Below are positions 581 to 38,200 of a DNA stretch of 64,000 nucleotides, piece by piece (position 1 is the stretch's first letter; each line of letters begins with the position of its first letter). Origin of the DNA: Lachnospiraceae bacterium UBA938 (GTDB lineage: Bacteria; Bacillota; Clostridia; Lachnospirales; Lachnospiraceae); the NCBI GenBank assembly GCA_002293475.1, contig DBDG01000059.1:31726-95725 (forward strand), read 5' to 3'. The position numbers and the translations under genes are program-made. Below the pieces are notes generated by a model. That model made no database searches. It saw only the letters and a program-made list of their open reading frames with translations, and had not been told where the DNA came from.

Positions 581-584
581 TGAT

Positions 585-18108: not shown

Positions 18109-19371
18109 ATGAATGTGAATATGTATGTGAATATGAAGGAGAAACGAAATAAGAGAAATAAGATAAGTAAGATAAGTAAGATAAGTAAGATAAGTAAGGC
18201 GGCAACTATATTTTGGGTTTTGATGTTTGTTTTAGTGAGCATATCTGGTTGCAGTCAGAACAATATTGCAGTTGATAACGAACAGATATCGGCAGAGAAT
18301 GAACAGGCAGATAATGAACAGGCAGATAATGAACAGACAGATAATGAACAGACACCGGCAGATCAGACGGATAGTCAGTCTGTGGAGGATCAGCCAGAAG
18401 AGAAAATAAGTATTGTCTGTACGATTTTTCCGCAGTATGACTGGGTGCGGGAGATTTTAGGCGACAGGACAGAGGATGTGGAACTGACGCTTTTGCTGAA
18501 CGGAATGGCCGATCTTCACAGTTATCAGCCTACGGTAGAGGATATTGTAAAAATATCAAGCTGCGATCTGCTTATCTATACTGGCGGCGAATCTGACGTT
18601 TGGGTGGAGGATGTGCTTCAAGATGCAACGAATCCGAATATGGTGATCATCAATCTTCTGGAGTCTCTGGGAGATGCCGCCAAGTTAGAAGAGATACTCG
18701 AAGGCATGGAAGATGATGGGCACGAGCATGGCAGCGAAGAAGCGCACGAGGGCGAAGAAGCGCATGAAGACGATGAAGCGCATGAAGACGATGAAGCGCA
18801 TGAAGACGATGAAGCCCATGATGATCATGAAGAGGTACTTGATGAACATGTGTGGATGTCACTTAAAAATGCTGAGACGCTCTGCTTAGTTATTGAAGAG
18901 ACATTGTCTGTTCTGGATTCTGAGCATGCCGAGCAGTATGAAAGCAATATGCTCACATATGTAGAAAAACTTTCAACCTTAGACAGGCAGTATCAGGAGG
19001 CAATAGGTGCAGCACCGAATAAGACCTTGTTAATCGGGGATCGGCATCCTTACCGCTATCTGTTGGATGACTATGGCTTGAGCTGCTTTGCGGCCTTTGT
19101 CGGATGTTCAGCCGAAACTGAGGCGAGCTTTGAGACGATTGTCTTTTTATCAAAGAAGCTTGATGAGCTGGATCTGAAGCATGTTATCGTGACAGAAAGC
19201 ACTGATCAAGCCTTGGCCAATACCATTATTGAAAACAGCACGGACAAAGATCAGAGGATTCTTGTGCTGGACTCCCTGCAGTCTGTGACGACGCAAAATA
19301 TGGGGGAAGGCATGACGTATCTTTCCATCATGGAGAGCAACCTAGATGTATTAAAAGAAGCTGTGGGATAA
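18109..19371 (+). CDS. znuA: Metal (probably zinc) ABC transporter substrate-binding lipoprotein, ZnuA/AdcA-like
   Basis: Lipobox 'LVSISGCSQ'. His/Asp/Glu-rich loop 'HEHGSEEAHEGEEAHEDDEAHEDDEAHEDDEAHDDHEE' is typical of Zn-specific cluster A-I binding proteins. It is followed by ATPase and permease genes. Confidence 0.75.
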   Translation: MNVNMYVNMKEKRNKRNKISKISKISKISKAATIFWVLMFVLVSISGCSQNNIAVDNEQISAENEQADNEQADNEQTDNEQTPADQTDSQSVEDQPEEKISIVCTIFPQYDWVREILGDRTEDVELTLLLNGMADLHSYQPTVEDIVKISSCDLLIYTGGESDVWVEDVLQDATNPNMVIINLLESLGDAAKLEEILEGMEDDGHEHGSEEAHEGEEAHEDDEAHEDDEAHEDDEAHDDHEEVLDEHVWMSLKNAETLCLVIEETLSVLDSEHAEQYESNMLTYVEKLSTLDRQYQEAIGAAPNKTLLIGDRHPYRYLLDDYGLSCFAAFVGCSAETEASFETIVFLSKKLDELDLKHVIVTESTDQALANTIIENSTDKDQRILVLDSLQSVTTQNMGEGMTYLSIMESNLDVLKEAVG

Positions 19372-19421
19372 AAGGTACTATAAAACTATATAAAAATACA
19401 GCACAATAAGGAGATGTTAAT

Positions 19422-20135
19422 ATGCCACAGCTGTCCTGTCAGGACATTACCCTTGGATATGAAGGGAAGATCGTAGTTGCCAATCTTTCTTTTACGGTCA
19501 GTGCCGGAGATTATCTGTGCGTGGTCGGGGAGAACGGTTCCGGTAAAACTACTTTGATGCAGTCAATACTGAGGTTAAAAGCGCCTATGTCAGGTCAGGT
19601 CGTCACCGGTGACGGCCTGAAGCCTGCTGAGATTGGCTATTTACCCCAGCAGACGGAGGTTCAGAAGGATTTTCCTGCCTCCGTGCGGGAAGTGGTCCGT
19701 TCCGGCTGTCTGAACGGATGCGGCTACCGGCCTTACTATAGTAAGGCGCAAAAGGATATGGCAGACGAGAATATGGAAAAACTGGGTATTGCGGATCTGG
19801 CGAAACGCTGTTACCGGGAACTGTCCGGCGGCCAGCAGCAGCGGGTGCTGCTGGCTCGGGCATTATGCGCAACTAGGAAGCTTTTACTGCTGGATGAGCC
19901 GGTGGTGGGGCTTGATCCCAAAGTCACGAAAGAATTGTATGATATAATAGAAACACTGAACAAAAGCGGCATTACCGTCATGATGATATCGCATGACATT
20001 GCCATGGCGGTAAACTATGCTTCGCATATCCTGCATATCGGCAATCAGCAACTGCTGTATTACGGGATTACAGAAAACTATCTGCAGAGCGAGCTGGGTA
20101 AGAGATATGCCGGATGGGGAGGTGCCAGGGTATGA
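19422..20135 (+). CDS. znuC: Metal ABC transporter ATP-binding protein
   Basis: Walker A 'GENGSGKTT', signature 'LSGGQQQRVLLARA', Walker B 'LLLLDEP'. Confidence 0.8.
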   Translation: MPQLSCQDITLGYEGKIVVANLSFTVSAGDYLCVVGENGSGKTTLMQSILRLKAPMSGQVVTGDGLKPAEIGYLPQQTEVQKDFPASVREVVRSGCLNGCGYRPYYSKAQKDMADENMEKLGIADLAKRCYRELSGGQQQRVLLARALCATRKLLLLDEPVVGLDPKVTKELYDIIETLNKSGITVMMISHDIAMAVNYASHILHIGNQQLLYYGITENYLQSELGKRYAGWGGARV

Positions 20136-21025
20136 CAGCGGGAACTTTTTGGGAGAATGTCCAGAAGCTATCAGCTCAGGAAATAATAAGCAAACTGGCA
20201 GAATATTTTGAATTTGTCAATGTCCGCTATGCGTTGGTGGTCGGTATTTTCATTGCCTTTTGCTCGGCGCTTCTGGGGGTTACGCTGGTATTGAAGAGAT
20301 TTTCGTTTATCGGCGACGGGCTTTCCCATGTCGCGTTCGGAGCTACGGCGGTGGCTACGGCGTTAGAACTGGCCAGTGATTTTGTGCTGGTCCTGCCAGT
20401 TACGGTTATTTGTGCTATTTTACTGCTTAGATCCAGTCAAAACAGCAAGATTAAGGGAGATGCCGCGACGGCGATGATCTCAGTGGGTACCCTGGCAATC
20501 GGCTATCTGGTGATGAACTTAAATCCTCAGTCGACGAACGTGGCCGGTGATGTCTGCTCGACGCTGTTCGGCTCCTTGTCGATCCTGACGCTGACTGCGG
20601 CAGAGGTATGGCTATGTGTGATTCTATCGATTGCCGTTATCATAATATTTTTTGTTCTTTATCATAAAATATTCGCCGTTACCTTTGACGAAAACTTTGC
20701 GACGGCGACCGGAACCGGAGCAAAAAGCTATAATCTAATCCTGTCCGTAATCATTGCCGTGATTGTCGTCTTGGGGATGAATATGGTAGGCTCGCTTTTG
20801 ATCTCGGCGCTGGTGATCTTTCCGGCCTTATCGGCTATGCGGGTTTTTAAGAGCTTTAAGGCCGTGATCCTTTGTTCGGCGGCGGTTTCGGTAATATCGG
20901 CGACGGTCGGGATGTTGATTGCGATCCTGGTGGGGACACCGGTGGGTCCCACGATTGTAGCTATTTATATTGTCGGGTTTGCGTTTTTTAGCGCAATTGG
21001 ATTTCTGACTGGTCTAAGACGTTAG
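20132..21025 (+). CDS. znuB: Metal ABC transporter permease
   Basis: ATG at 20132 overlaps the upstream stop (ATGA). The protein has about 8 hydrophobic helices. The operon context fits. Confidence 0.75.
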   Translation: MTAGTFWENVQKLSAQEIISKLAEYFEFVNVRYALVVGIFIAFCSALLGVTLVLKRFSFIGDGLSHVAFGATAVATALELASDFVLVLPVTVICAILLLRSSQNSKIKGDAATAMISVGTLAIGYLVMNLNPQSTNVAGDVCSTLFGSLSILTLTAAEVWLCVILSIAVIIIFFVLYHKIFAVTFDENFATATGTGAKSYNLILSVIIAVIVVLGMNMVGSLLISALVIFPALSAMRVFKSFKAVILCSAAVSVISATVGMLIAILVGTPVGPTIVAIYIVGFAFFSAIGFLTGLRR

Positions 21026-22907: not shown

Positions 22908-22936
22908 TTTACAAATTTGGTTTTTTCATATATAAT
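22908..22936 (+). promoter_or_regulatory. Sigma-A-type promoter in front of the precursor-peptide candidate
   Basis: TTTACA (22908-22913), 17-nt spacer, TATAAT (22931-22936). Confidence 0.55.
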
Positions 22937-23015: not shown

Positions 23016-23258
23016 ATGAATATTACCGATGAACAAATGCAGATGCTGGAAAAGCAAGCAGTAGATATGGTTAAGCGCTCAATAAAGGGGGCTTTCGAGT
23101 CGCCAGACCTTGTCCGGCTGGGCGAAGATGAAACAGGCAATAAGACAAGCAGGGATATGGGTGAGTCTGTGGTGGCATCTGTGGCAGGCGGAGTGGCAAG
23201 CGGTGTAGCAAGTGCCGTTGTGGCTTCCATGATACCAGGACCGGTGGTTCCGGGCTGA
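23016..23258 (+). CDS. Candidate RiPP precursor peptide (80 aa)
   Basis: ATG at 23016 lies 5 nt after AAGGAGG (23004-23010). The N-terminal half is charged and helix-prone. The C-terminus is Cys-free: 'SVVASVAGGVASGVASAVVASMIPGPVVPG'. It is the first gene of a PqqD-like / radical SAM operon. Confidence 0.6.
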   Translation: MNITDEQMQMLEKQAVDMVKRSIKGAFESPDLVRLGEDETGNKTSRDMGESVVASVAGGVASGVASAVVASMIPGPVVPG

Positions 23259-23477: not shown

Positions 23478-23756
23478 GTGCAAAAAAGGATACGTTTAGA
23501 ATGTGCAAGCTGGTATCGCCGTGATGACGGAGTGGTTCAGATAATCGGCAAAAACGGCAGAACTACTATTTTAAATAAAGCTTATTCGGAAGTTTGGGAC
23601 AAAATCGGATATGAGATAGAGAGCGGCGATCTGTGTAACGAAATGAAGGATGTTATGTCGGAAGAACTGATTATGCACATTTTGGATGAATTTATCAATA
23701 AAAATATGATTACGGTTACATCCGAAGCAGATAATTTTGATATGCTGTTCAATTAA
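23478..23756 (+). CDS. PqqD-like small protein (putative RiPP recognition element / peptide chaperone)
   Basis: 92 aa, GTG start after AAGGAG. The pattern 'LNKAYSEVWDKI...ESGDLCNEM...EELIMHILDEFINKNMI' resembles the PqqD family. It lies immediately upstream of radical SAM genes. Confidence 0.6.
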   Translation: MQKRIRLECASWYRRDDGVVQIIGKNGRTTILNKAYSEVWDKIGYEIESGDLCNEMKDVMSEELIMHILDEFINKNMITVTSEADNFDMLFN

Positions 23757-23778: not shown

Positions 23779-25083
23779 ATGCGAAGCACGGATGTTTTAT
23801 TGATCAATCTCCCGACCGGGAGCTGGTATAAAGAAAGGCTGGCAGAATCCAACTCAATGCCGCCGCTGGGGCTACTATATATAGCGGCGGTCCTAAAGGA
23901 TAATGGGTTTGCGGTCAAGCTGGCAGATTTTGCCGTAGAGGAGTTCTCAAAAGAAAAATTATCGGCATATTTAGATGAATGTCAGTCGGGCATTGTAGGT
24001 ATGAGTACATATAATGAGTCTTGGAATGCCCAAAAGATTTTATGCGAACATATTAAGGCAAACTATCCGGCTATAACAGTTCTGGCTGGGGGTGCTTTTG
24101 CGACATTCTGCTATTCTGATATATTGCGTAAAACTAAAACAGACTATGTGCTTCGTGGTGAAGGGGAAAGATCCTTTTTACAATTCTGCAATTGCTTTTT
24201 TCATAAGGAAGGCTTTAAGGAAAAAGTCAGAAGCGTAAAGGGGATCGCTTTTTTGGAAGAAAACAATCAGGTGTTTGAGAATGGTCTAGCGGGCCGGATA
24301 TGCGATCTGGATGAACTGCCGTTTCCTGACCGTAGCTTGGTGAATCTGAAAAATTACGTACTGCCTTTTACGGTAAGTACATCCCGGGGCTGTCCGGGCA
24401 ACTGTATTTTCTGTTCTTCCAAGTCCTTCTGGGGGCAAAAGGTTATTATGCGTTCGGCAGAGAATATATATAAAGAGGTAGCGCAACTCCACAAAGAGTA
24501 TAAAACAAATCTATTTTATATTACCGATGATACATTTACGGCATCTAGGAAAAGATGTAATGATTTTTGTGAAATGCTGTTACAATCGGGCATTAAATAT
24601 ATCTGGGGCTGTGAGTCTAGGGCTGATATTGTTGATGAAGAATTAATTAAATTATTATATGAATCAGGCTGCCATAAGATTCAGTTTGGCTTTGAAAGCG
24701 CGAATAATGAAATCTTAAGGAAGTTAAAAAAACATGTAACAATAGAACAAATAGAAAATGCGGTAAGACTTGCCCATAAATATAATATGCACATACAGAC
24801 GTCATATATTATCGGGCACGCATTTGATACAAAGGAAACAATTGAACATACAATTTCTTTTGCAAGATACCTGCGGGACACCTATGGGGCTCGGGTAGCT
24901 TGCAGCGTAAATACGCCGTTCCCTGGTACCGAACAATTTGAAAAACGCGAAGAACTGGGAATCAAGATATATACTGATGACTGGTCGCAATACCTTTTGA
25001 ATGTTCCGATTATCAGTACAGATCATATGTCCCGGAATGATCTTGGATATTATCTGGGAGTGGGTCAGCAATTGGTCGATTAA
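23779..25083 (+). CDS. B12-binding-domain (class B) radical SAM enzyme
   Basis: The N-terminal segment 'LLINLP...PPLGLLYIAAVLKDNGFAVKLADF' is cobalamin-binding-domain like. The radical SAM motif is 'RGCPGNCIFCSS' (CxxxCxxC). Confidence 0.8.
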   Translation: MRSTDVLLINLPTGSWYKERLAESNSMPPLGLLYIAAVLKDNGFAVKLADFAVEEFSKEKLSAYLDECQSGIVGMSTYNESWNAQKILCEHIKANYPAITVLAGGAFATFCYSDILRKTKTDYVLRGEGERSFLQFCNCFFHKEGFKEKVRSVKGIAFLEENNQVFENGLAGRICDLDELPFPDRSLVNLKNYVLPFTVSTSRGCPGNCIFCSSKSFWGQKVIMRSAENIYKEVAQLHKEYKTNLFYITDDTFTASRKRCNDFCEMLLQSGIKYIWGCESRADIVDEELIKLLYESGCHKIQFGFESANNEILRKLKKHVTIEQIENAVRLAHKYNMHIQTSYIIGHAFDTKETIEHTISFARYLRDTYGARVACSVNTPFPGTEQFEKREELGIKIYTDDWSQYLLNVPIISTDHMSRNDLGYYLGVGQQLVD

Positions 25084-25129
25084 GGCGGTGTGCCGGTATG
25101 GAGCGGAACAGAACGAGAAGGAGCGAGGA

Positions 25130-26443
25130 TTGGAAGTATTAAATAAATATTATATATTTGCGAAAGACAAATATTTAATTAAGCCAATAGAAAACAGCTT
25201 TTTCCTTATTTCCAACGAGTTATTTGAAGTGCTGTGTGTCAATGAAACAGGTATTGAAATCATTAATGAATTAGATGGAACCAAGACAGTTAATGATATA
25301 ATTTCCAAGCTTTCCGGAGACTATGGCATTGAGGAGGATATTATATCCGAGCTGGTAGTGCAGTTTGTCATTAAATTAGTTAAGAGTGATCTGATAACCG
25401 ATGTTTTGTCTGAATATTCCTCAAATACAATTAACAAGCAAGACAGACTCCGAAGATTCTATGTTAGTATAGCCGGAAGGGAAGGGGAAGAACTGAATCC
25501 TGATATCATTGCTGATATTCTGGAAATGGTCCAGACAGATAATGACAAAATATTAATATATGTACATGGCAAAGAGCCAATGCTTCATTCCCGTTTTGAT
25601 GAGGTGTTGCAAATCCTTAGCAAAACTAAGCAGAACAATATTATTGTTTGTACGGATGGAAATATTTTACGCCATGGCTGGAAGACCGCTATACAAGAAT
25701 ATGTAAATGGTATTATGCTTAAATTTGCCCATACGGATAGAGAAATTAATGATCAGGTATTGGGCAAGGGTCATTATGACCATTATAAAGAAGCGCTGCA
25801 GTTTTACCGGGATTGCCGCGTGCCGGTCTACATGAATGTCATACCGACGGAGAAAAATATTGATAGTTTAACCGATATTCAGCAGTATGCGTATGACCTC
25901 CATATGAATGGGATTCAATTTCAGACTTCCTGTTTCCCGGGCAGTGTGAAGCCGCAGGACGGCTTGGTCAAAGATTACGAAGGGCAATATAAACAGGTTA
26001 AAAAGGAATTATATAAATTAAGCAATTTTTTGAACGCTTGGCGAAACAATCGTAGCAAAAGTGCAGGCCGGGAATTTCCGCTGTTCTTTGAGGATGACAG
26101 ATGCTTTTCCGGGTTTCGTGCCCTTTCCTGCATGTCTCATTGCGGTCTGATGTTAAATGAAATCAGTGTGGATTTACAAGGCCGGATATATCCTTGTCAT
26201 AAGCTGCACTGCGATGAGTTTATGTTTAAAAACGCCGATGAGTATCTGGCCAATAAAGATAGATTCAAGAAAGAGAGGGTTACTAACAATAAGTGTAATG
26301 AATGTGATTTCTGGCTGATTTGCATGGGAGGGTGCCGGGCAGATACCTATCATCATCGGGGCGAGATGTCGGCATTGAGCAGTGCCTGTGAGGAGCAAAA
26401 GCTGAAAATCATGGAAAGGCTTACAATGATTGCAAAAAGATAA
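25130..26443 (+). CDS. PqqD-like domain plus radical-SAM-fold plus SPASM domain protein that lacks the CxxxCxxC motif
   Basis: The C-terminal SPASM pattern is 'C-x12-G-x4-C' (CGLMLNEISVDLQGRIYPC) and 'CNECDFWLICMGGC' (Cx2Cx5Cx3C). 'RFYVSIAGREGEELNP' sits where the radical SAM cluster motif is expected. TTG at 25130 lies 6 nt after AAGGAG. The ORF-track start at 25001 would overlap the upstream gene by 83 nt. Confidence 0.7.
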   Translation: MEVLNKYYIFAKDKYLIKPIENSFFLISNELFEVLCVNETGIEIINELDGTKTVNDIISKLSGDYGIEEDIISELVVQFVIKLVKSDLITDVLSEYSSNTINKQDRLRRFYVSIAGREGEELNPDIIADILEMVQTDNDKILIYVHGKEPMLHSRFDEVLQILSKTKQNNIIVCTDGNILRHGWKTAIQEYVNGIMLKFAHTDREINDQVLGKGHYDHYKEALQFYRDCRVPVYMNVIPTEKNIDSLTDIQQYAYDLHMNGIQFQTSCFPGSVKPQDGLVKDYEGQYKQVKKELYKLSNFLNAWRNNRSKSAGREFPLFFEDDRCFSGFRALSCMSHCGLMLNEISVDLQGRIYPCHKLHCDEFMFKNADEYLANKDRFKKERVTNNKCNECDFWLICMGGCRADTYHHRGEMSALSSACEEQKLKIMERLTMIAKR

Positions 26444-26704: not shown

Positions 26705-28429
26705 GTGTTCAATTTGCAGAAAAAGATACTTGTAAAATCATTTGTAAAGCCCTATCAATACTGGATAATAATTATTGTCGCGGCAGCGATTATTGGCACG
26801 GCTACAGATATCGCAGTGGTTTATTATGTTCAGATGTTAATTGATGACACGGTAATGTCAAATACGAGCATAAATAATATAATTAACATATGCTTATATT
26901 TAATAACAACTACTTTTTTGGGCATTTTAGTTAGATTTATTGTAAAGAAAGGTACAATGCTATTTGGGGTTTATGTAGTCAGGGATATCCGTCAGAGTGC
27001 CTATCGCCATATAAGTATCATACCCGTTTCTGATCTAGAGAGGTTTCATACCGGTGATATTGTCTCAAGACTTACAAACGATATTTTTACTATTCAGAAT
27101 TTTCTCCAAAATGATTTTTACTATCTCATATATTATCCGCTCTTGATATTTTTTACCTTTGTCTATATGCTCATTATTAATTGGAAGCTTGTCTTGTTTA
27201 GCTCCCTGCTTACTCCGATGATCCTCTTTTTGATTACGCTTTTAAGCAAACCGATAACGAAGTACACCAAATATATTCAAGAAAGCCTGGGCGATGCCAA
27301 TTCACTGGTTCGCGACAGCGTAGTGGGGGCTTCGGCAATAAAAACTTATAGCTTAAGCAGGTTCATGTCAGAAAAATATAAGGGGATTATGAAAGAATTA
27401 TTACAAAAGAGTCTTTCGCTAGAAAAGCTCCGCAGTGTCCTAGCGCCTGCCAATGTCGTATTAAGATTGCTCCCCTTTGTGTTATGCCTGCTATATGGCG
27501 GGTATTTAATGGTTCAGGGATCATTGGATATTGCTGGTTTTATCGCTTTTTTTCCGCTGCTTAATTACATGCTTCAGCCGACGGCCATGATACCTTATTA
27601 TATTGGCAGTATCAGAGCAGTAACAGCGGTGACGGAGCACATTTTTGACATATTTGCCCTGCCGCATGAAAGGCAAGACGGAGGGAGTTTTTTGCTGGAC
27701 GGACATTCTGTTGTGTTAGAGTTCGATAAGGTTTCCTTCCAATACGGGGATCATGAAAAAGTCCTTGATAATTTAAGCTTTCAGTTAGAAACAGGAAAAA
27801 CCATAGCTATCGTCGGTTTAAGCGGCAGCGGAAAAAGCACCATACTTAAACTGGGATGTGGGTTTTATGAGCCGACGGATGGACAGATCAGGCTAGGCGG
27901 GACATCCTATTCCGAATGGAACCTGAAAAAGGCAAGGGAGAATATCGCTGTGGTGTCACAGGATAATTATCTTTTTCACGCCAGCATAGCGGATAATATT
28001 TCCTGCGGCAGGCCTGAGACTGTCAGAGAGGACATCATAGAAGCGGCGCAAGCCGCCGGTGCCCATGAATTTATTGTTAAGCTGCCTAGCGGCTATGACA
28101 CTTTAGTAGGAGAAATGGGAACAGGAATCTCAGGAGGACAACGACAGAGAATCGCAATAGCAAGGGCTTTCCTGAAAAATGCCCCGATATTTTTCTTTGA
28201 TGAACCGACATCAGCACTTGACACCCAGACAGAAGCTTCTGTGCACGATGCCCTTGTGAAGCTGAAAACAAAATACTCTGTACTTATTGTGACGCACCGT
28301 TTGAGCACCGCGAAGCTGGCAGATGAGATCATCGTTCTGGACGGAGGGCGTATCGTACAGACCGGCTCACATGACCAGTTGCTGAAGGAAGAAGGGGCAT
28401 ATAAAGCACTTTACAGTTCCTTAAGCTAG
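26705..28429 (+). CDS. ABC exporter, fused permease-ATPase (half transporter)
   Basis: Six N-terminal TM helices. Walker A 'GLSGSGKST', signature 'ISGGQRQRIAIARA'. No N-terminal C39 peptidase domain. Confidence 0.85.
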   Translation: MFNLQKKILVKSFVKPYQYWIIIIVAAAIIGTATDIAVVYYVQMLIDDTVMSNTSINNIINICLYLITTTFLGILVRFIVKKGTMLFGVYVVRDIRQSAYRHISIIPVSDLERFHTGDIVSRLTNDIFTIQNFLQNDFYYLIYYPLLIFFTFVYMLIINWKLVLFSSLLTPMILFLITLLSKPITKYTKYIQESLGDANSLVRDSVVGASAIKTYSLSRFMSEKYKGIMKELLQKSLSLEKLRSVLAPANVVLRLLPFVLCLLYGGYLMVQGSLDIAGFIAFFPLLNYMLQPTAMIPYYIGSIRAVTAVTEHIFDIFALPHERQDGGSFLLDGHSVVLEFDKVSFQYGDHEKVLDNLSFQLETGKTIAIVGLSGSGKSTILKLGCGFYEPTDGQIRLGGTSYSEWNLKKARENIAVVSQDNYLFHASIADNISCGRPETVREDIIEAAQAAGAHEFIVKLPSGYDTLVGEMGTGISGGQRQRIAIARAFLKNAPIFFFDEPTSALDTQTEASVHDALVKLKTKYSVLIVTHRLSTAKLADEIIVLDGGRIVQTGSHDQLLKEEGAYKALYSSLS

Positions 28430-28459
28430 AGATTGATATTTGTTTAACTATAATACGTT

Positions 28460-30217
28460 GTGGCGCAGATGGGAGATGAGATGGGAGAAATAAAAAAACT
28501 GTTTTCTTTGATGGGGCGAAGAAAGTACGGATATTTGACAGGGATTCTTATAACCGCCTGTGCGGAGACAAGTATTTATATTGTGGTTTCTTTTGTGCTA
28601 CGGGATATGTATAATGCCGGGGTGCGTACAGATATGGCGATCCTGATCCGAGCGGCCGGAATTATGGGGATAACAACAATTACTGTCAGCATTTTATATG
28701 GTATGTTCAGTTACATGTACAATGCTTCGGCCAGAAAGGCAATGGCTGAAATAAGGCTTAAGTCATATGTGACGGCAGGAAACCTCCCGGTTTCTTATTT
28801 CGAGCAAAATCACAGTGGCGATGTTGTGTCCAGAATGACTAATGATATGCAACTTCTGGAGCAGATATACACCCTTCAGATTTACTCATTTGCCTACACA
28901 GTCATTTATGGAAGCGCCTCGGCAGTATTCATGCTACTGACTGACTGGCAGCTCTCTATATATTTTCTGGCAATGGGAGGGATATTGCTGGGGATAAACG
29001 CCGGACTGGCAAAAGCACTGCGACGGCTAAGTAAAAAGATTCAGGAATTACAGAGCCGGCTGACTTCCGGGCTGTCAGATTTGCTATCTGGCCTGAAGAT
29101 TGTCAGGATGTTCCATCTAGAAGTAATTACCTATAAGGAATATGAGGAGCTGAACCGGGAATCGGTTCGCTTGAATAAGAGACGTGCCAATAAAAATGCC
29201 TTGATTGAGAGCACTAATTATTTCATGGGTACGGCCAGCTATGCCGGACTGGTTGCGGTGGGAGTTTTAATGGCGACATTGGGCAAGATTGAAGTGGATA
29301 AGGTGATCGGTCTTACGCAATTGATGATGGGGGTCACTTTTATGTTTCAGCAACTAGGCAATGCCGTTGCCGGCTTGCAGAGCTCGCTGGCCGGGGCGAG
29401 GAGGGTGACGGAGCTGTTGAATGAGAAACCGGAACCGGAATCCTATCATAATCTGGTGATTTCCGAGCAGGCAGAGTACGCCTTGTCGGTGGAGCATCTA
29501 TATTTCAGCTATGATGGTTCTGCCAACATCCTTGAAGATATCAGCCTTAACGTAAAGGCTGGGGAGATGATTGCGATAGTAGGCAACAGCGGGAGTGGAA
29601 AAAGTACATTGATAAAGGTGCTGTTAGGGCTTTATGAAGCCGACAGCGGAATGATTACAGTCAAAAATAACGCTACTACGACTGGAACGATAAACAGGCT
29701 CAGAAGTTCGATGTCTTATGTATCGCAGGATGTCTGTCTGTTCAATGCCAGCATCAGGGAGAACGTAAGCTATGGAAGGTTCGATGCAAAGGATGCGGAA
29801 ATCGAAGCAGTATGCCGGGCAGCACATGCCCATGATTTTATTGTAGAATTCGAAGAGGGTTATGACACGTCAGCAGGTGAAAACGGGTCAAGGCTGTCAG
29901 GCGGTCAGAAACAAAGAATTGCATTGGCTAGGGCTCTGTTAAAAGAAGCACCCATCATCCTGCTGGATGAAGCGACATCGGCATTGGATAATCAGACAGA
30001 GCGGTATGTGCAGGAGTCGATGGTAGAACTGATAAAAGGGCGGACAGCGATAGTAGTAGCCCATCGGCTTTCGACGATAAAAAATGCGGATAGGATCTAT
30101 GTTATGGATAAGGGCAGGATTGTTGAATGTGGCAGCCATGATGAACTGCTGCAGACTGGAGGAGTGTATGCCGGTCTCTACCATATTCAGAGGATAGAAA
30201 ACAAGCTAAAGGAATAG
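28460..30217 (+). CDS. ABC exporter, fused permease-ATPase (probable heterodimer partner)
   Basis: Walker A 'GNSGSGKST', signature 'LSGGQKQRIALARA'. The start is ambiguous: GTG 28460, or ATG 28481 after 'gggag'. Confidence 0.85.
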   Translation: MAQMGDEMGEIKKLFSLMGRRKYGYLTGILITACAETSIYIVVSFVLRDMYNAGVRTDMAILIRAAGIMGITTITVSILYGMFSYMYNASARKAMAEIRLKSYVTAGNLPVSYFEQNHSGDVVSRMTNDMQLLEQIYTLQIYSFAYTVIYGSASAVFMLLTDWQLSIYFLAMGGILLGINAGLAKALRRLSKKIQELQSRLTSGLSDLLSGLKIVRMFHLEVITYKEYEELNRESVRLNKRRANKNALIESTNYFMGTASYAGLVAVGVLMATLGKIEVDKVIGLTQLMMGVTFMFQQLGNAVAGLQSSLAGARRVTELLNEKPEPESYHNLVISEQAEYALSVEHLYFSYDGSANILEDISLNVKAGEMIAIVGNSGSGKSTLIKVLLGLYEADSGMITVKNNATTTGTINRLRSSMSYVSQDVCLFNASIRENVSYGRFDAKDAEIEAVCRAAHAHDFIVEFEEGYDTSAGENGSRLSGGQKQRIALARALLKEAPIILLDEATSALDNQTERYVQESMVELIKGRTAIVVAHRLSTIKNADRIYVMDKGRIVECGSHDELLQTGGVYAGLYHIQRIENKLKE

Positions 30218-30227: not shown

Positions 30228-33200
30228 ATGAAAATTACCAAAGAGCAGCTGTTTGGGCTGACACATGCACAAAAGCGGATATGGTACGGTGAGAAACTGT
30301 ATCCGGAATTACGGGATGAAATTATATGTCTTATTATTGCTTTTACAGTAGAGATATGTCCCGACTTATTAGCAGAGGCAGTAAATGCCTTGATCAGAAA
30401 CAACCCCGATATGAGGTTAAGAATGCATTCCCAGGACGGGGAATGTATGCAGTATTATTCAGAATATCATGGTTATCAAGCAGAGGTTCTGGAATTTGCC
30501 GGGGTAGAAGCGGACAGACAGGCAGAACAGTATTTCAGTGACCTGTATGACCAGAAATTTGCGTTGTATCATTGTGATCTTTTTCATTTCTCCGTTTTAA
30601 AAATCAACAATTCCGTTAGGTTTTTTATTAAAATTCATCATTTAATCTCCGACAACTGTACCATTGCCCTTATTATGGATAAAGTATTGGGTTATTACCG
30701 GACACTGAAAGCAGGGCAGAAGGTCCTGGAGCCTATCGGGGAGCAAGGCAGGTACCGGCAGTATTACCAGTGGGAACAAGAGTATCTGGTTTCTGATAAG
30801 TATTCACAGAACAAAGAATATTGGAATAATAAATTCAAGACAGTTCCCGATGAATTAAGCATAGAACCGTTTAAGACATTAAACCGGCAGGATTACAGCT
30901 CGGCCAAGTCTAAATTTGTGATGCCCGTTGAATTTGTCGACAATATTAAAAGATTCTGCGGTAAATATGATACTACGGTTTACCGGGTTATTTTAGCAGC
31001 ACTGTACATCTACATTTATAAGGCATCAAGCAGAGAAGATATCATTATTTCCACTCTGAAGCATAATAGAACGGAAGCAACCATGGATATATTGGGGATG
31101 TTTGTATGCACGGTTCCGGTTCGCTTAGCAATAGATAAAGAAATGGATTTTCTGGCTGTTTTGCGCCTACTCAGAAAGGAATTGCGATTATGTGCAAAAA
31201 ATCAAGACTATCCGTATGACCAGCTCATAAATGACCTCAGGGAGAATGGTGTAGACAACGGAAATTATCTTAATGATATCCAAGTGTCTTATCATACGGC
31301 ATATCCGGCAGAAATTGATTATGCGACATGGTACTTTAAAGGCGGCATTGCCAATGCAATTTATTTTACCATAAGCGACTGGGGGGATAACGGAATACTG
31401 GACTTCGAGATCAATTATCGTACGTCGCTCTTTGACGAAGCAGCCATCAACAGAATATACCGCTGTATGTGCAGATTGATAGAGGAAGGAATCCGATATC
31501 CGGAACATAAGCTCGCACAGCTAGACATGCTCGGTGCCGAACAGACAAACAAGCTACTGTTTGAATTTAATGCCACTACGGCAGCTTATCCCGATCAGTC
31601 GACGATACATCAGCAGTTTGAAGCACAAGCCGAAAGAACTCCGGATCTGATTGCGGTTATTTATAAAGCAACAGCGCTGACTTATTCACAGCTGAACGCT
31701 AGGACTAATCAATTGGCGCGGACACTTAGAAAAGCGGGGGTTAACCGAGACAGTATTATTGCGCTGCTGCTTAACCGGACAGAAGAAATGATAATAGCTA
31801 TACTCGCCATCCTAAAAGCAGGCGGCGCATATCTACCGATAGATTCTAGCTATCCCCTTGATAGAATCAGCTATATGATCAAAGACTCAGGCGCGGAAAT
31901 CATATTGACAAAGACGGATATGGCTGGGCTGTCTTACGCGGGAAAAGAAATATTTATTGACGATAACGTTTTTTATGATGCCGACCAGAGTAATCTGGCC
32001 AATATAAACAAAAGCTGTGATCTGGCATATATGATCTATACGTCCGGCTCTACCGGAAAACCCAAGGGAGTCATGATAGAACATCGGGCAGTTCTTAATT
32101 TTGTTAAAGGAATGACGGACCGCATCGATTTTCATGAGAATAAGACCATTTTATCGTTAACCACCATTTCCTTTGATATTTTCGTGTTAGAGGCCCTGCT
32201 TCCCTTGATGACAGGAATGAAAACGGTTATTGCTGATGAAACGCAACAGTACGACCCTGTCCAAATGAACAGTCTGATTATCACAAATAATGTTGATATC
32301 ATCCAGATGACACCGTCTCGCATGCAGCTGCTTTTAGCAAACGGACAGAATATCACCGGACTGAAAGACATTAAGGAAATACTGCTGGGCGGCGAGGCGG
32401 TTACGGAGAGCCTCATCAGAAGCTTAAGGCCGTTGACCGGCGCGAAGCTATACAATATGTACGGCCCCACGGAAACGACAGTCTGGTCATCGGTAAAAAG
32501 TATTGAGAAGAATGACGAGATTACAATCGGAAAACCTATTGCCAATACCCGTATTTATATTGTAAATAAGCATAACGAGCTTGTGCCGGCCGGGGTTATA
32601 GGAGAAATCTGTATCGCTGGGACCGGAGTTGCCAGGGGATATCATAACCGAGAAGAGCTTAACCGAGAAAAGTTTGTTAAAATCCCCGCCGGCTTTAGTA
32701 AGGACGGTGGCGGGCATGAGATTATGTATCGAACCGGGGATCTGGGGTGGTGGCGGCCGGACGGTGACATAGAATTCGTGGGAAGAATAGATACACAAGT
32801 CAAGCTTAGGGGATACCGGATCGAACTGGAAGAGATAGAGAGGGCTGCTATGGAACACGGGTCGATTACTAAATGTGCGGCTATCGTGAAAGAGAATAAC
32901 AAGGGGCATCAATATCTTGTCCTGTATTATGCGGCCGGGGAAACTATTGCCGCCCAAGAGCTTGATCGCTTTTTGAAAGATAAGCTGCCTCATTACATGA
33001 TACCGGGCGATTTTATCTGGATGAAAGAATTACCGATGACACCCAACGGCAAGCTCAACAGGCAAGCGTTACCGGAATCGACTTTGCCGGCAGAGCCAGT
33101 AAGCAATACATTCATAGATCCCGAAACTAGGTATGAAAAGCAGGTACTTGATATCTGGAAAAAAGTACTGGATAAGGATGCCATTGATATTCATGAGAAT

Positions 33201-33974
33201 TTTTTTGAAACTGGCGGGAATTCATTCTTTTTGATTATGATGCATTCACTGCTGGATGAAAAGTATCCCGGAAAGGTCAAGATCGCGGATATTTTTGATC
33301 ATCCGACTATTTACCGACTGGCAGCTTATATTGAGAAGCAGGCAGATAGCATTGACAAAAACGGCATTATAGATAAAATCCTTACTCTGAAGCTTCCTAG
33401 GAAATACTTTGCGGAAGACAAAGATGGCCATGAAGGCGGCTCGCTGCATGTAAAGCTGGATTCTTCCTTACACAATGAGATAATCGGCATATGCCGATCA
33501 AACAATATAGAATCAGAGTATTTCATGTTGGGAATGTATCTTTATCTTTTGGCGGAAGTTTCTCAGAATGATATCGTATCGGTTCAGGCTGTCAGCAGCG
33601 ATTCGGCCAGTATGCGGCAGATAAATGTTAATTTTGCTGATGTTTCCAAGTTGGAAGCTTTGTTCTGTCAAGTAAAGGATAGCTGCAGCCCCACCGGAGA
33701 TGGATTGAAATATAAGCTGGAAAATCTCAATTATCTGGCGCTCATAAAGGAGCCGAATACGATCCTGCCAGTATTTAGCTACAATAAGGAAGAAGTTTAT
33801 ATCAAGAGAGCAATGTATGACCTTATGCTTTCGATAAAGTGTACGGAAGATGGCATGGAGTTTTATGTAGACAGCATTAACAATAGAATTAACCAAAGAA
33901 CAATGAAAGCGCTGGCAGCAGGATATGTAGACCTGTTATACGCTTACGTTAAACAAACTAAAGTCAAGATTTAA
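30228..33974 (+). CDS. NRPS module C-A-T with a C-terminal truncated condensation-like region; A domain predicted to activate glycine
   Basis: C domain 'HHLISDNCT' (HHxxxD). A domain 'LAYMIYTSGSTGKPKG', 'NMYGPTETT', 'YRTGDL', 'PNGKLNRQAL'. PCP 'FFETGGNSFFL'. Hand alignment to GrsA-PheA gives the specificity code D-I-L-Q-L-G-M-V-W-K. Confidence 0.85.
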   Translation: MKITKEQLFGLTHAQKRIWYGEKLYPELRDEIICLIIAFTVEICPDLLAEAVNALIRNNPDMRLRMHSQDGECMQYYSEYHGYQAEVLEFAGVEADRQAEQYFSDLYDQKFALYHCDLFHFSVLKINNSVRFFIKIHHLISDNCTIALIMDKVLGYYRTLKAGQKVLEPIGEQGRYRQYYQWEQEYLVSDKYSQNKEYWNNKFKTVPDELSIEPFKTLNRQDYSSAKSKFVMPVEFVDNIKRFCGKYDTTVYRVILAALYIYIYKASSREDIIISTLKHNRTEATMDILGMFVCTVPVRLAIDKEMDFLAVLRLLRKELRLCAKNQDYPYDQLINDLRENGVDNGNYLNDIQVSYHTAYPAEIDYATWYFKGGIANAIYFTISDWGDNGILDFEINYRTSLFDEAAINRIYRCMCRLIEEGIRYPEHKLAQLDMLGAEQTNKLLFEFNATTAAYPDQSTIHQQFEAQAERTPDLIAVIYKATALTYSQLNARTNQLARTLRKAGVNRDSIIALLLNRTEEMIIAILAILKAGGAYLPIDSSYPLDRISYMIKDSGAEIILTKTDMAGLSYAGKEIFIDDNVFYDADQSNLANINKSCDLAYMIYTSGSTGKPKGVMIEHRAVLNFVKGMTDRIDFHENKTILSLTTISFDIFVLEALLPLMTGMKTVIADETQQYDPVQMNSLIITNNVDIIQMTPSRMQLLLANGQNITGLKDIKEILLGGEAVTESLIRSLRPLTGAKLYNMYGPTETTVWSSVKSIEKNDEITIGKPIANTRIYIVNKHNELVPAGVIGEICIAGTGVARGYHNREELNREKFVKIPAGFSKDGGGHEIMYRTGDLGWWRPDGDIEFVGRIDTQVKLRGYRIELEEIERAAMEHGSITKCAAIVKENNKGHQYLVLYYAAGETIAAQELDRFLKDKLPHYMIPGDFIWMKELPMTPNGKLNRQALPESTLPAEPVSNTFIDPETRYEKQVLDIWKKVLDKDAIDIHENFFETGGNSFFLIMMHSLLDEKYPGKVKIADIFDHPTIYRLAAYIEKQADSIDKNGIIDKILTLKLPRKYFAEDKDGHEGGSLHVKLDSSLHNEIIGICRSNNIESEYFMLGMYLYLLAEVSQNDIVSVQAVSSDSASMRQINVNFADVSKLEALFCQVKDSCSPTGDGLKYKLENLNYLALIKEPNTILPVFSYNKEEVYIKRAMYDLMLSIKCTEDGMEFYVDSINNRINQRTMKALAAGYVDLLYAYVKQTKVKI

Positions 33975-33986: not shown

Positions 33987-35267
33987 ATGAGTAAGATTGC
34001 TTTTATGTATCCAGGGCAGGGGTCACAGTACGTCGGAATGGGGAAGTCTTTATGGGAGAATTTTTCACTGGTTAAAGAAATATATGAGGAAGCGGAAAAT
34101 ATACTGGGTTTCGGGCTGAAGCAGCTTTGTTTTGAAGGGAGCATGGAAGAACTGTCGCAGACGGAGAATACTCAGCCGGCTATATTCGTGGCAAGCTATG
34201 CGGCATACCGGGTGCTGACGGCGGAAACGGGCATACGGCCGCTCTTAAGTGCCGGCCATAGCTTGGGGGAGATCACGGCGCTGACTTGTGCCGAGGCAAT
34301 CCGTTTCCCAGACGCGGTCAGGATCATAAGGGAGAGAGGGAGGCTGATGCAGGAAGCGGCAGCGGCCGAAAGCGGGATCATGGTTGCTATATCCGGAGTG
34401 GATAAAACAACCATCAAAGAAGAATGTGAAAAGGCCAGCCGGCCGGGTGATATTGTAGCTATATCCAACTATAACTCACCGATGCAGGTTGTCATATCAG
34501 GAAACCGCGATGCTGTGGAAAGGTTATGTGCAAAGATGAAAGAGCTTGACGGCAGGACGGTTCAATTGAAAGTAAGCGCCCCCTTTCATAGCCCGATTAT
34601 GGCTCCCGCCGCCGCCGCACTGGAAGCAGTCCTCCAGGATTATCGCTACGCAGAACCGAAATTTGACGTGGTCTCCAATGTAGATGCTAGAACCTATGCC
34701 GGAGCCCATGAAATAATTCCCCGGCTTAAAGAACAGATGGTGAAACCGGTTAGATGGCAGGAATCCATGAAGTATTTCCGCCGGCTGGAGATTGATACGG
34801 CGATTGAAATCGGACCGCATAATGTCTTAAAAAAACTGATGGTTCAGAATATACATTCGGTCAATACATTTTCTTGTGAAAAAGAGAAGGATATATCGGA
34901 GCTAAAGAACAGGCTTGGCACGGCGCCGGAGCAAGAGCCGCCTGCCCGCCCGGAGCTTTCGGTGGTTACCAAGTGTATGGCAGTTGCTGTCTGTACCAAA
35001 AACCGTAATTGGAATAATAATGAATATGAACAGGGAGTGATACGCCCATATAACAGGGTCCAAAAGATCCAGGAGAGAATTCAAAATGAGGGACGGCAGC
35101 CGGACATTGCGGAAATGAAAGAGGCTATCAATATGCTGATAAGTGTGTTTAATACAAAGAAGACACCCGTCCAGGAGCAGAACATCCGCTTTCAACAGAT
35201 TTACGAACAAACAGGAACAAAGGAACTATTTCGCGAATTGGGTTTGATATCGGCCAAAGCAATCTAA
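33987..35267 (+). CDS. Discrete (trans-acting) malonyl-CoA:ACP acyltransferase with a ~130-aa C-terminal extension
   Basis: FabD-like motifs 'MYPGQGSQYVGMG', 'GHSLGEITAL' and 'SAPFHSP'. The flanking PKSs lack AT domains. Confidence 0.85.
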   Translation: MSKIAFMYPGQGSQYVGMGKSLWENFSLVKEIYEEAENILGFGLKQLCFEGSMEELSQTENTQPAIFVASYAAYRVLTAETGIRPLLSAGHSLGEITALTCAEAIRFPDAVRIIRERGRLMQEAAAAESGIMVAISGVDKTTIKEECEKASRPGDIVAISNYNSPMQVVISGNRDAVERLCAKMKELDGRTVQLKVSAPFHSPIMAPAAAALEAVLQDYRYAEPKFDVVSNVDARTYAGAHEIIPRLKEQMVKPVRWQESMKYFRRLEIDTAIEIGPHNVLKKLMVQNIHSVNTFSCEKEKDISELKNRLGTAPEQEPPARPELSVVTKCMAVAVCTKNRNWNNNEYEQGVIRPYNRVQKIQERIQNEGRQPDIAEMKEAINMLISVFNTKKTPVQEQNIRFQQIYEQTGTKELFRELGLISAKAI

Positions 35268-35283: not shown

Positions 35284-38200
35284 ATGCAGAAATTAATTGA
35301 TTTTAAATATATTGATATTGAAGAAGGTAAGGACTGGGACAGACTCCCCGAAACCGACCGGAAAAATATTGCGGTAATCGGCCTGTCGGCAAAATTAGGA
35401 GGAACTAAGAATAAGGAGGACCTCTGGAGAATGTTGGCAGACGGCAAAGATGCCATAAAGCCCTTTCCGGAGCAAAGAAGGCAGGATGTAAACCGTTATC
35501 TGAATTCTTTGCGGTTATATCCAGACAAGATAGACTATCACCATGGGGCATACATGGAAGAAATAGATAAATTTGACTATAAGTTTTTTAAGATTTCTAA
35601 AAAGGAAGCCGACCTGATGGAGCCGAATCAGAGAGCATTCTTAGAAACGGCATGGGAAGCAGTCGAGGACGCCGGTTATGGGGGAGCGCAGTTATCCGGC
35701 AAAAACATAGGTGTCTTCTTAGGATATAGTTCTGACTTCGGCGAAGAGTATAAAAAGATAGTCCAGATGATGGATCCGGCCAGTGCAAAACTGGCTGCTA
35801 CCGGGAACATCAAATCGATTATTTCAAGCAGAATCTCTTATTTATTAGACCTGCACGGTCCCAGTGTGATGATTGACACAGCCTGCTCCTCTAGTCTTGT
35901 GGCGATTCATGAGGCCTGCCGCTCGATCAGGAACGGGGAATGTGAGGCGGCGATTGCCGGCGGCGTCAAGATTCTGATGATACCGGGAACAGCAGAGAGC
36001 TGTGCTGAAGCAGGAATCCATATTATAAGCGATATTTTGTCTTCAGACGGAAAGACGAGGACATTTGACGACAATTCGGACGGTACCATGCTGGGAGAGG
36101 GAACAGCAGCCGTTTTGCTTAAGCCTCTGAACCGGGCTATCGTGGATAAAGACCATATATATGCTGTTATCAAAGGCAGTGCCATCAATCAGGATGGCGG
36201 TTCAATTGGGATCACGGCACCCAATTCAGCGGCCCAGGAAGAGGTGATCTGCAAAGCATGGAGGGATTCGGACATTGCCGTGGACACTATTTCCTATATC
36301 GAGGCACACGGAACGGGAACAAGGCTAGGGGATAGCGTGGAGATTAACGGATTAGAAAGGGCATTCCGTAAGCACACTGATAAAAAGCAGTTCTGCGCAA
36401 TCAGTTCCATTAAGACAAATATCGGACATCTGGACTGTACTGCCGGAATATCCGGTTTTACCAAAGCCATTCTTTCTTTACACAAGAAAAAGCTGCCGCC
36501 CAGTCTTAATTTTACTTGCCCGAACAGAAACATCCCGCTTGTGGATTCCCCAGTATTCATCAATGACAGCCTGACTGACTGGGATACCGGAGACATTCCC
36601 AGAAGATGCGGGGTAAGCTCATTTGGACTCAGCGGCACCAATTGCCATATTATCCTGGAAGAGGCTCCGGTTATGGAAGTAACGGAAGTAAGTAAGGGAA
36701 TTAAGAGGACAAACCTGTTTGTTCTATCCGCGCAAGACCCCCATTCCCTAAAGGCAATGGTAATAAAATATATTGATTATTTCTATACCGATAACCCGGC
36801 TTCCATAAACGACATATGCTACACTGCCAGCATAGGCAGAGGGCATTACCGGTACCGCTTGGCCATACCGGTAAAGAGTATTGAAGAGTTAGAATGTAAG
36901 CTGGTTTTACTGCAATCCAATAACTTCCAATATGATAAGGTAAAGGACGTGTATTATGGAGAACACATAGTAGTAAGCCAGGCTAAGGAGGACAAGGAAC
37001 AAGGCGACATCACCGCGGAAGAAAAGCGCAGTCTTACGGCACAGGCTAATTCCTTGATACAATATTTTATCACAGGCCGGACAACTGCTGAACAATATAA
37101 TAATCTAGCGAACTGCTATATCAGAGGGGCTGATATAGCATGGGAAACATTGTATCATGCCGGAAGCTATCGGAGAGTAAACCTGCCGACCTATGCGTTT
37201 TTAGAAACCAGATGCTGGGTAGAGGATAACGGTAATAAAATTAATACGATGCCCCAAAAGACTGATTCAATAAGTCCGTTGATTGATACCCGTCTGGCCA
37301 AGACCTTGAGCCAGGAGATTTACACGACCTGTTTTAGGGTAGAGCGGCAGTGGGTTTTACGGGAGCATAAAGTGTTCGGCAAATATGTTGTTCCCGGGAC
37401 GGCCTATATTGAAATGCTAAGGACAGTACTGGATAAAGGGAGCAGTGCCCAGCATGTGATGATACGGGATCTCAAATTTACCGCCGCACTTGCGTTGGAA
37501 GAAGCTGAAGAAAGAGAAGCCCATCTGCTCATCCGGGATCTAGGTGACCACATAGAATATGAGATTGCCAGCAAGAGTGAAAAGTCGGATGAATGGGTGA
37601 TACATGTGAGCGGGGAAGCTGTATATGTTACCGAAGCAGGGGAAGAGGCATGGGATCTTACGGAACTCCTTTCCCGGTTTACCAAAACCGATGCCCTGAC
37701 GTACCGGCAGTTCCCGGATAACCCGATTCAAACCGGAGCCAGATGGGATACCTATGGTCAGATATTCCATAAGGCAGATGAATACGTTTCCCATATTAAG
37801 CTTGCGGAAAGCTACCACGAGGATCTGCAGGAGTACTTTATCCATCCTTCCATGATGGATTGTGCGGTCAATACGGCCAATGCGTTTATCGGAGACGGAT
37901 ATTACCTGCCATTTTCCTATAAGAAACTAATAATATATGGTGCGACTCCGCCGTCTTTTTATTGTCATCTTAAACGGAAGGATAAGCACAATAGTGATGA
38001 AACGGCAACCTTTGATATTGTATTTCTGGATATGGAAGGCAAAGTTTTATTGAAAGCAGAAGAATATGTCATCAAGAAAGTCAGAGATTCCATCAAAGAA
38101 AACCGCGCAGACAGTTATTATCGGACCGCATGGGTCAAGAAGCCGGCAACTGAGCTAAGAGCCGGCTTGGCGACCGGACGCGTGCTGGTATTCACCAGCG

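Follow-up and report, generated by a model that had tools for sequence, protein, structure and literature searches.

The 64,000-nt stretch of contig DBDG01000059.1 analyzed here, hereafter the window (assembly GCA_002293475.1, positions 31,726 to 95,725 of the forward strand), comes from Lachnospiraceae bacterium UBA938 and encodes a protein that, judged by its sequence, is a radical-dead descendant of a three-part peptide maturase. Maturases of this architecture combine a recognition element (RRE) for the precursors of peptides that are made on the ribosome and modified after translation (RiPPs) with a radical S-adenosylmethionine (SAM) barrel and a SPASM domain. The window protein is predicted to be incapable of binding the canonical SAM-cleaving cluster; its fold, its RRE and its auxiliary-cluster ligands are preserved. 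Its gene follows that of a B12-binding radical SAM enzyme (B12-rSAM) in an undescribed family of RiPP operons from gut and rumen Firmicutes, and its product is probably a non-radical, iron-sulfur (Fe-S)-bearing, leader-binding accessory subunit for that B12-rSAM, in which no RRE was detected. Two features are central to this proposal:

25130..26443, forward strand: radical-SAM-dead SPASM gene encoding 437 aa, with a PqqD/RRE domain at about residues 1-95, a degenerate barrel at about 105-300, the bridge FLNAWRNNR at 300-308 and a SPASM domain
25472..25495, forward strand: short beta1-alpha1 loop GREGEELN (residues 115-122), standing in, according to the alignments, for the CX3CX2C loop of about 20 residues in active relatives

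The CX3CX2C motif, whose loss was first proposed in a sequence-only reading of the window, went with an in-frame deletion that took out about 15 residues between beta1 and alpha1. In the alignments homology picks up again on both sides; where active relatives read, for instance, 'IYIDITGSCNLGCCYCFKP..NNRNSEI', the window protein reads 'FYVSIAGREGEELN'. The Cys residues of the protein are C36, C174, C229, C268, C325, C334, C338, C356, C361, C389, C392, C398, C402, and C420. Only the first four of these precede residue 300, none of the four is kept in relatives, and no alternative Cys triad is found in this region. The strings quoted in the sequence-only reading are all present ('YVSIAGREGEELNP' at residues 111-124, 'ILIYVHGKEPMLH' at 141-153, and 'IIVCTDGNIL' at 170-179), and the core motifs are partly kept as HGKEP, CTDGN, and LGKGHY, against the TGGEP, TNG, and RGxGxF/Y of active enzymes. 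The Pfam Radical_SAM profile scores 26.5 bits, below its cut-off of 29.5, and aligns at profile positions 21-157 only, that is, past the Cys motif.

Artefacts of assembly or gene calling were considered and rejected. CX3CX2C was searched for in the protein and in all other frames of the gene and was not found, so that neither an assembly error nor a frameshift can conceal it. The reading frame is open across 25001-26443, and the start was taken to be the TTG at 25130. An AAGGAG ribosome-binding site precedes this codon by 8 nt, the B12-rSAM gene stops 46 nt before it (at 25083), and the N-termini of all homologues line up with it. The upstream start at 25001, raised in the sequence-only reading as a possible source of ligands, was ruled out: it overlaps the B12-rSAM gene, it has no ribosome-binding site, and the homologue starts are equivalent to 25130. 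The 43-aa extension that it would provide runs into the preceding gene, contains only two Cys, and adds no ligand set.

It is hardly credible that the SAM-cleaving cluster is still bound, and the protein still a radical SAM enzyme, through non-canonical ligands or through Cys donated in trans by, for example, the 92-aa protein encoded upstream. Variant motifs are known in a small number of radical SAM enzymes, and the 92-aa protein does have one nearly invariant Cys, but the whole loop is deleted rather than substituted, GGE is altered in the window protein and destroyed in its relatives, the first 300 residues contain no conserved triad of Cys, His or Asp, and a single Cys in trans would be insufficient. 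With the loop that carries the SAM-cleaving cluster deleted in frame, the window protein should therefore be unable to make the 5'-deoxyadenosyl radical by itself, as the sequence-only reading had supposed.

The fold and the two end domains are preserved. The PqqD-like N-terminal domain claimed from the letters alone is borne out by a match to PF05402 of 34 bits (cut-off 23.4) over residues 37-89, and the SPASM model TIGR04085 is matched with 48.6 bits (cut-off 27). Both Cys sets of the SPASM domain are likewise where they had been placed (C338-x12-G351-x4-C356 and C389-x2-C392-x5-C398-x3-C402), and with C325 and C420 they give eight ligand Cys which, on the analogy of anSME, would presumably divide between two auxiliary [4Fe-4S] clusters, with C325/C338/C356/C402 for auxiliary cluster I and C389/C392/C398/C420 for auxiliary cluster II. 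An AlphaFold2 model built from a 120-sequence alignment reaches a predicted local distance difference test score (pLDDT) of 89.9 and a predicted template modeling score (pTM) of 0.87, against a pLDDT of 37.5 for a single-sequence run. It shows an N-terminal domain of three strands and three helices, followed by strand 109-115 and helix 124-134, which a loop of eight residues joins, with strands and helices alternating over residues 109-264 in the manner of a partial (beta/alpha)6 triosephosphate isomerase (TIM) barrel. Foldseek matches of the model are radical SAM structures only, the best full-length ones being CteB (5WGG, E 1e-16), SuiB (5V1Q, 9e-16), and TigE (8VPO, 5e-15), followed by anSME, SkfB, and PqqE. 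The Cys triad that a functional radical SAM protein carries after beta1 is absent from the window protein.

The same loss is seen in a minority of homologues. A word-indexed protein search, run with the single sequence and with an eight-sequence profile, returned only the query and the homologue P0015, while 889 hits, of which 12 had E values below 1e-30, came from an exhaustive HMMER scan covering 1.84 billion representatives. Motif content was surveyed in 129 full-length proteins (50%-identity representatives) among the best 150 of these 889 hits. CX3CX2C is absent from 10 of the 129 (P0001, which is the window protein, P0002, P0004, P0007, P0011, P0012, P0014, P0015, P0089, and P0098) and present in the other 119 at the expected place, around residues 105-145, so the homologues do not all retain the motif; had they done so, a recent pseudogene would have been indicated, according to the sequence-only reading. 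The full-length cluster-less homologues are divergent, at 22-34% identity. Further cluster-less copies were located in the genomes of an uncultured Ruminococcaceae bacterium, a Lacrimispora metagenome-assembled genome (MAG), the Lacrimispora amygdalina isolate src4, and an Erysipelotrichia MAG, and a metagenome scan added copies from the human gut.

Of the eight Cys positions that supply SPASM ligands, seven are identical in every one of 14 cluster-less sequences and C325 is present in 13; the core alignment shows no variation at any of the eight. The TGGEP, TNG, and RGxGxF/Y motifs, near-invariant in active sisters, have decayed in the same 14 sequences, being destroyed in the 13 relatives and least decayed in the window protein. 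Mean pairwise identity in the barrel is 19% among dead copies versus 28% among active ones; the corresponding values are 28.5% versus 31% in the RRE, 34% versus 33.5% in the SPASM domain, and 39% versus 24% in the bridge (F-L-N-S-W-K-N-N-R). This bridge, of the general form [FL]-[LI]-N-S-W-[KR]-N-N-R, is common to all relatives and joins the barrel to the SPASM domain, occupying residues 300-308 of the window protein (positions 26027-26053); the bridging region of SuiB is in contact with the leader peptide. Identity is distributed as if constraint had been relaxed on the once-catalytic barrel and maintained at both ends, the one for peptide recognition and the one for Fe-S binding.

The nearest relative of the window protein is P0003 (36% identity), which retains its cluster motif as CNLGCCYC. 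In a bootstrapped neighbor-joining tree, a method that is rough on such divergent sequences, the two are grouped in 94 of 100 replicates, and together with a seven-member dead clade they form a nine-member clade in all 100. The dead homologue P0089 falls inside this clade in none of the 100 replicates, and P0098 is still more distant. Since regaining a deleted CX3CX2C loop along with GGE is implausible, the tree implies a minimum of three losses of the SAM-cleaving site, and probably four, in this B12-associated family. Furthermore, since P0003 still has its cluster, the loss in the window protein would be independent and comparatively recent, within a family that has lost the site repeatedly.

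A record search with the window protein found no second copy and no close relative, and selection was therefore assessed on other dead members, by computing the ratio of nonsynonymous to synonymous substitution rates (dN/dS, Nei-Gojobori) on pairs of related copies. The ratio is 0.17 for the Lacrimispora MAG and L. amygdalina copies (80% amino acid identity) and 0.11 for those of loci L006 and L013 (64% identity). In these two pairs, respectively, constraint is strongest in the SPASM domain (0.10 and 0.08) and weakest in the barrel (0.21 and 0.16); the RRE gives 0.16 in the Lacrimispora pair and is not computable in L006/L013, where dS is saturated. The neighboring B12-rSAM genes show values of 0.04-0.07. 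In these other copies the dead state is, on the evidence of these ratios, stable under purifying selection. The strongest argument for a second job is that the protein has persisted through independent losses of its radical site, whereas a protein that served only to make radicals would have been deleted.

Two alternatives can be weighed at this point. The first, which we regard as unlikely, holds that the window gene is a relic heading toward pseudogene status, its radical SAM step lost recently and its decay pending. Its closest relative does keep the cluster, and its GxEP, TDG, and GxGxY motifs are near-canonical, from which it follows that the loss is young. Its operon is reduced (one B12-rSAM, no C39 peptidase, no GG site in the leader), no close homologue was found on which selection could be tested, and decayed operons exist, such as that at L025. 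Against this, the 437-codon frame, preceded by a good ribosome-binding site, is intact, as are the RRE and all eight of the SPASM Cys, three other lineages hold the dead state under selection, and the operon of P0089, equally minimal, occurs on 18 contigs. The second alternative, that the barrel cavity and auxiliary cluster I carry out some SAM-independent reaction around the B12 step, for example redox or Lewis-acid chemistry, seems to us quite improbable. The barrel is under purifying selection (dN/dS 0.16-0.21), its fold is confidently predicted, and in some relatives, MoaA and CteB among them, substrates can be bound directly by an auxiliary cluster. However, the only invariant residues between positions 100 and 300 are R109, Y111, and G261, leaving no barrel residue beyond structural ones; the barrel is the fastest-evolving part of the protein; the core peptide has no Cys with which to ligate a cluster; and at least three independent lineages would need to have acquired the same new chemistry.

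The genomic context of the dead copies ties them to B12-rSAM genes. In related operons, at least one small precursor gene is followed by a gene for a protein of 91-99 aa, a B12-rSAM gene, the cluster-less gene, zero to two more B12-rSAM genes, and ABC (ATP-binding cassette) transport genes, with an ABC exporter bearing a C39 peptidase usually nearby. This order is seen at loci L001, L003, L005, L006, L008, L013-L017, and L019-L025, and at the distant locus L018 the small gene comes after the B12-rSAM gene and ahead of the cluster-less one. All 18 cluster-less copies with readable context outside the window, one of them decayed (L025), are beside a B12-rSAM gene, and these neighbors are intact (CPGxC[IV]FC) except for the broken B12-rSAM genes at L025. 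The copies sit 0-41 nt from a B12-rSAM gene, stop and start sometimes overlapping; from the B12-rSAM gene to the cluster-less gene the gap is 4-32 nt, the two genes overlapping in L020, and the downstream B12-rSAM gene often begins 0-17 nt after the cluster-less one, a layout that reads as a tightly coupled operon. The partnership that had been suggested from the window alone, with the B12-rSAM encoded next to it, thus gains support from strict synteny in 18 copies and from the purifying selection acting on dead copies. Cluster-retaining sisters occupy the same operon slot: P0003 at L010, where the 3' end of a B12-rSAM gene lies ahead of it, and P0005 at L011, where the order is precursor, 96-aa gene, B12-rSAM, active rSAM-SPASM gene (P0005), S8 peptidase, B12-rSAM, and ABC genes.

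Three of these loci have further features of interest. At L011, a MobA/MobL relaxase, a DDE transposase, and a resolvase flank the P0005 operon (340-5821 and 16635-17204), which suggests that the operon may move on mobile elements. At L006, a SAM synthetase gene with MetK domains (2477-3673) lies upstream of the C39 exporter and the precursors, consistent with a high demand of the pathway for SAM. At L025 (human gut metagenome contig OQJH01000678, 4655-8558), the operon copy is decayed, with the first B12-rSAM truncated to 389 aa, the cluster-less gene reduced to a 306-aa open reading frame (ORF), and the second B12-rSAM split; the operon can therefore disappear by pseudogenization.

The window has the gene order of its relatives (precursor, 92-aa gene, B12-rSAM, cluster-less gene, then two ABC exporters), and with these first four genes in order and a precursor that aligns with the others, it belongs to the operon family defined by the GVASGV...IPGPxxPG core. 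The features that accompany the dead gene are the following:

22908..22936, forward strand: promoter-like site TTTACA-17-TATAAT (11/12), a consensus match only, ahead of the precursor gene
23016..23258, forward strand: precursor gene encoding 80 aa, with an AAGGAGG ribosome-binding site 6 nt upstream, the leader motif AFESPD, and a Cys-free core ...SVVASVAGGVASGVASAVVASMIPGPVVPG
23478..23756, forward strand: gene for a conserved 92-aa protein (ECASWYxRDDG...LNK...W), found at the same position in every related operon
23779..25083, forward strand: gene for a B12-binding radical SAM enzyme whose CPGNCIFC motif is intact (Pfam B12-binding 67.5 bits, Radical_SAM 78.2 bits)
26705..30217, forward strand: two ABC exporter genes (574 and 585 aa; Pfam), each with a transmembrane domain and an ATPase, and with no C39 peptidase domain

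The frame of the B12-rSAM gene is open from 23737, and homologues point to the ATG at 23779 (MRSTDVLLINLP...) as its likely start. The enzyme falls under no NCBIfam equivalog, its top score being 218 bits to BchE against a cut-off of 481, and no PqqD/RRE match was found in it with Pfam. Pfam and NCBIfam have no model for the precursor or for the 92-aa protein. Members of the 92-aa family match the Pfam PqqD model in 2 of 10 cases, with E values of at least 0.007. The family aligns in register with the fused RRE in hhalign (E 0.002, probability 14%), and a lasso-peptide PqqD chaperone in the PDB is reached with an E value of 0.2. The 92-aa protein is possibly a second, free-standing PqqD-like winged-helix peptide binder.

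The precursor of the window (…GAFESPDLVRLG…SVVASVAGGVASGVASAVVASMIPGPVVPG) was aligned with 11 precursors from related operons. All 12 share the leader motif [IVA]-[FY]-E-x-P-[EDGA], usually with a GG cleavage site, and a Cys-free core of the form ...E-A-V-x-G-GVASGVSGA-x4-M-IPGPxxPG, with which the peptide ends in 11 of the 12. The core motif IPGPGIPG was not found in the literature searched. The window precursor has no GG site, in agreement with the lack of a C39 domain in the window exporters, and with neither present a different protease must free the core, if the peptide is made. At L017 (6211-6345), a precursor of the P0089 lineage (MAYTVPEISISCATPEPAISIIVGTILGSVASGVSGGVVSSLLG) keeps the leader motif and a GSVASGVSGG core and has no IPGPxxPG tail; the operon has one B12-rSAM.

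Downstream, 11 nt past the second ABC exporter, a cluster of the nonribosomal peptide synthetase (NRPS) and polyketide synthase (PKS) type extends over 30228-50928. Its parts include a condensation-adenylation-thiolation (C-A-T) NRPS at 30228-33974, a free acyltransferase at 33987-35267, and a 3100-aa ORF at 35284-44586, among others. The exporters at 26705..30217 possibly act in RiPP export or immunity, or are possibly part of this NRPS/PKS cluster; they could serve either system, or both clusters could be co-regulated.

In the mechanism proposed here, the RRE and the conserved NSWKNNR bridge would bind the F/Y-E-x-P-E leader, and the accessory subunit would tether the precursor to the B12 enzyme or enzymes, or present it to them. 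One to three B12-rSAMs would then carry out radical chemistry on the Cys-free core, rich in Val, Ala, Ser, Gly, Ile, and Pro. This chemistry would most likely be C-methylation or another alkylation, C-methylation being the default expectation for this class of enzyme. The two predicted Fe-S clusters would be kept for the integrity of the SPASM fold, and possibly also for the passage of electrons. Complex formation with the B12 enzyme, leader binding, Fe-S occupancy, and the chemistry on the peptide are all inferred, and either of the roles put forward in the sequence-only reading, peptide binding or electron transfer, may apply.

The electron-transfer role can be stated as a rival in its own right, in which the protein is an electron-relay subunit whose SPASM clusters feed electrons to, or withdraw them from, the B12-rSAM, the RRE being secondary. 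Such a relay could reduce the radical SAM cluster or cob(II)alamin, or it could take an electron from a substrate radical in a net-oxidative cross-link. The idea is compatible with a scaffold role, and we consider it rather doubtful. In its favor, the SPASM domain is the most constrained part of the dead copies (dN/dS 0.08-0.10), and the eight ligand Cys are kept amid the decay of the remaining catalytic apparatus. Class B radical SAM methylases require two reducing equivalents per turnover, and SPASM auxiliary clusters are thought to shuttle electrons. On the other hand, the SPASM domain is the best conserved in active relatives too, so that its constraint is not specific to dead copies, and the RRE, needless for a pure electron carrier, is also kept (dN/dS 0.16, Pfam score above cut-off). 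No dedicated Fe-S partner of a B12-rSAM was found in the literature searched, and no B12-rSAM is known to have one.

Several observations weigh against a leader-binding accessory subunit as well. The evidence linking the protein to the B12-rSAM as a partner is synteny alone. The conservation of the SPASM Cys fits a structural, an electron-transfer or a catalytic role equally. The chief weakness lies in the free 92-aa protein: if it is a PqqD-like RRE, the fused RRE becomes redundant and the scaffold argument weaker, and the B12 enzymes could have their true RRE in the 92-aa protein. The window operon is itself atypical in its single B12-rSAM, its lack of a C39 peptidase, and its leader devoid of a GG site; the operon of P0089 has the same minimal one-B12 layout, on 18 contigs. 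Lastly, the window copy has no close relative, so that selection is demonstrated for other dead copies only, and as the least decayed of all (HGKEP, CTDGN, LGKGHY) it could represent a recent loss that is still drifting.

A more far-reaching version of the accessory-subunit proposal would have radical SAM-SPASM maturases repeatedly converted into Fe-S pseudoenzymes that act as obligate subunits of B12-rSAMs. In such a two-component B12-rSAM system the dead paralogue would provide in trans both substrate recognition and the auxiliary clusters, the latter to handle electrons for the cobalamin/radical SAM cycle or for a step that quenches a radical, and the product would be a new class of heavily C-alkylated, Cys-free peptides from gut Firmicutes; this extension is possible and we advance it tentatively.

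The architecture of the window protein is that of known maturases. CteB (5WGG), SuiB (5V1Q), and TigE (8VPO), as well as anSME and PqqE, share its three-part organization, fold, and 7/8-Cys SPASM motif, although identity to solved maturases is 13-18% and the phmmer E value against CteB is 3.7e-07. In contrast to the window protein, with its deleted loop, these enzymes all carry CX3CX2C and GGE and cleave SAM, and none of them is paired with a B12-rSAM. Named maturase equivalogs (PapB, DynA, the SCIFF maturase, anSME, MftC, PqqE, AlbA, and CbpB) were ruled out, with scores 5- to 40-fold below their cut-offs, the best NCBIfam maturase score of the window protein being 49.8 bits for PapB (cut-off 340). 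The active CbpB family TIGR04163 (cut-off 375) is the best NCBIfam hit of the cluster-retaining P0005, at 110.6 bits, and gives 31.2 bits with the window protein; the Cbp system also pairs an rSAM/SPASM protein with a B12-type rSAM and a small peptide.

The notion of dead rSAM/SPASM homologues is already recorded in NCBIfam, where TIGR04347 groups curated look-alikes under the name 'pseudo-SAM/SPASM protein', a family different from that of the window protein. TIGR04347 gave no match to the barrel region of the window protein at E<=1 and is not among the top 25 whole-protein hits (cut-off 525 bits); it is touched only by the cluster-retaining P0003, at 49.9 bits against the same cut-off. No paper on the function of TIGR04347 was found in the literature searched, nor did the window protein turn out to have a characterized precedent there.

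Delivery of a precursor to an RRE-less enzyme by a non-catalytic, PqqD-type domain that binds its leader, the mode proposed here, is known for PqqD with PqqE and for the B1 proteins of lasso peptides, and the RRE partner protein PbsD likewise delivers the precursor to an oxidative enzyme of the multinuclear non-heme iron-dependent (MNIO) type (PMC12257519). PqqD, B1, and PbsD are small single-domain proteins with no Fe-S cluster, whereas the RRE of the window protein is fused to a full-size, disabled maturase that is predicted to bear clusters. The window B12-rSAM has the same B12-binding and rSAM architecture as PbsB and the C-methyltransferases of the PoyB/PoyC type, and the core of the window family is, like polytheonamide-type substrates, rich in Val, Ala, Ile, and Gly. 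No dead SPASM partner was found for PoyB/PoyC-type or PbsB systems in the literature searched, nor any report of a B12-rSAM with a dead SPASM-type partner, a weak negative, since most papers in subscription journals lie outside the search.

Elsewhere in the window, the interval from the end of one ORF at 14398 to the start of another at 15206 encodes two full-length TwoAYGGAY RNAs (RF01731), one per strand and separated by about 270 nt (14506-14675, reverse strand, 105.8 bits; 14944-15114, forward strand, 100.6 bits). The genes at 18109-21025 encode a lipoprotein, in which a long insert (HEHGSEEAHEGEEAHEDDEAHEDD...) is rich in His, Asp, and Glu, and then an ABC ATPase and a permease; the set resembles ZnuABC/AdcA-type systems for Zn/Mn uptake.

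It is by CX3CX2C that radical SAM/SPASM maturases are usually recognized, counted, and mined, and a conserved clade that lacks the motif is invisible to most surveys of radical SAM RiPPs. Repeated losses, together with selection on the dead copies beside a B12-rSAM, argue for a second, non-catalytic job, which may be substrate delivery, the handling of electrons by Fe-S clusters, or both, and which would suffice for their retention. The system hence bears on how B12-rSAM peptide modifiers without an RRE find their substrates, on whether SPASM auxiliary clusters can act in trans, and on the identity and function of a widespread gut and rumen peptide family with a GVASGV...IPGPGIPG core. With Lacrimispora amygdalina as a cultured carrier, it is also accessible to experiment.

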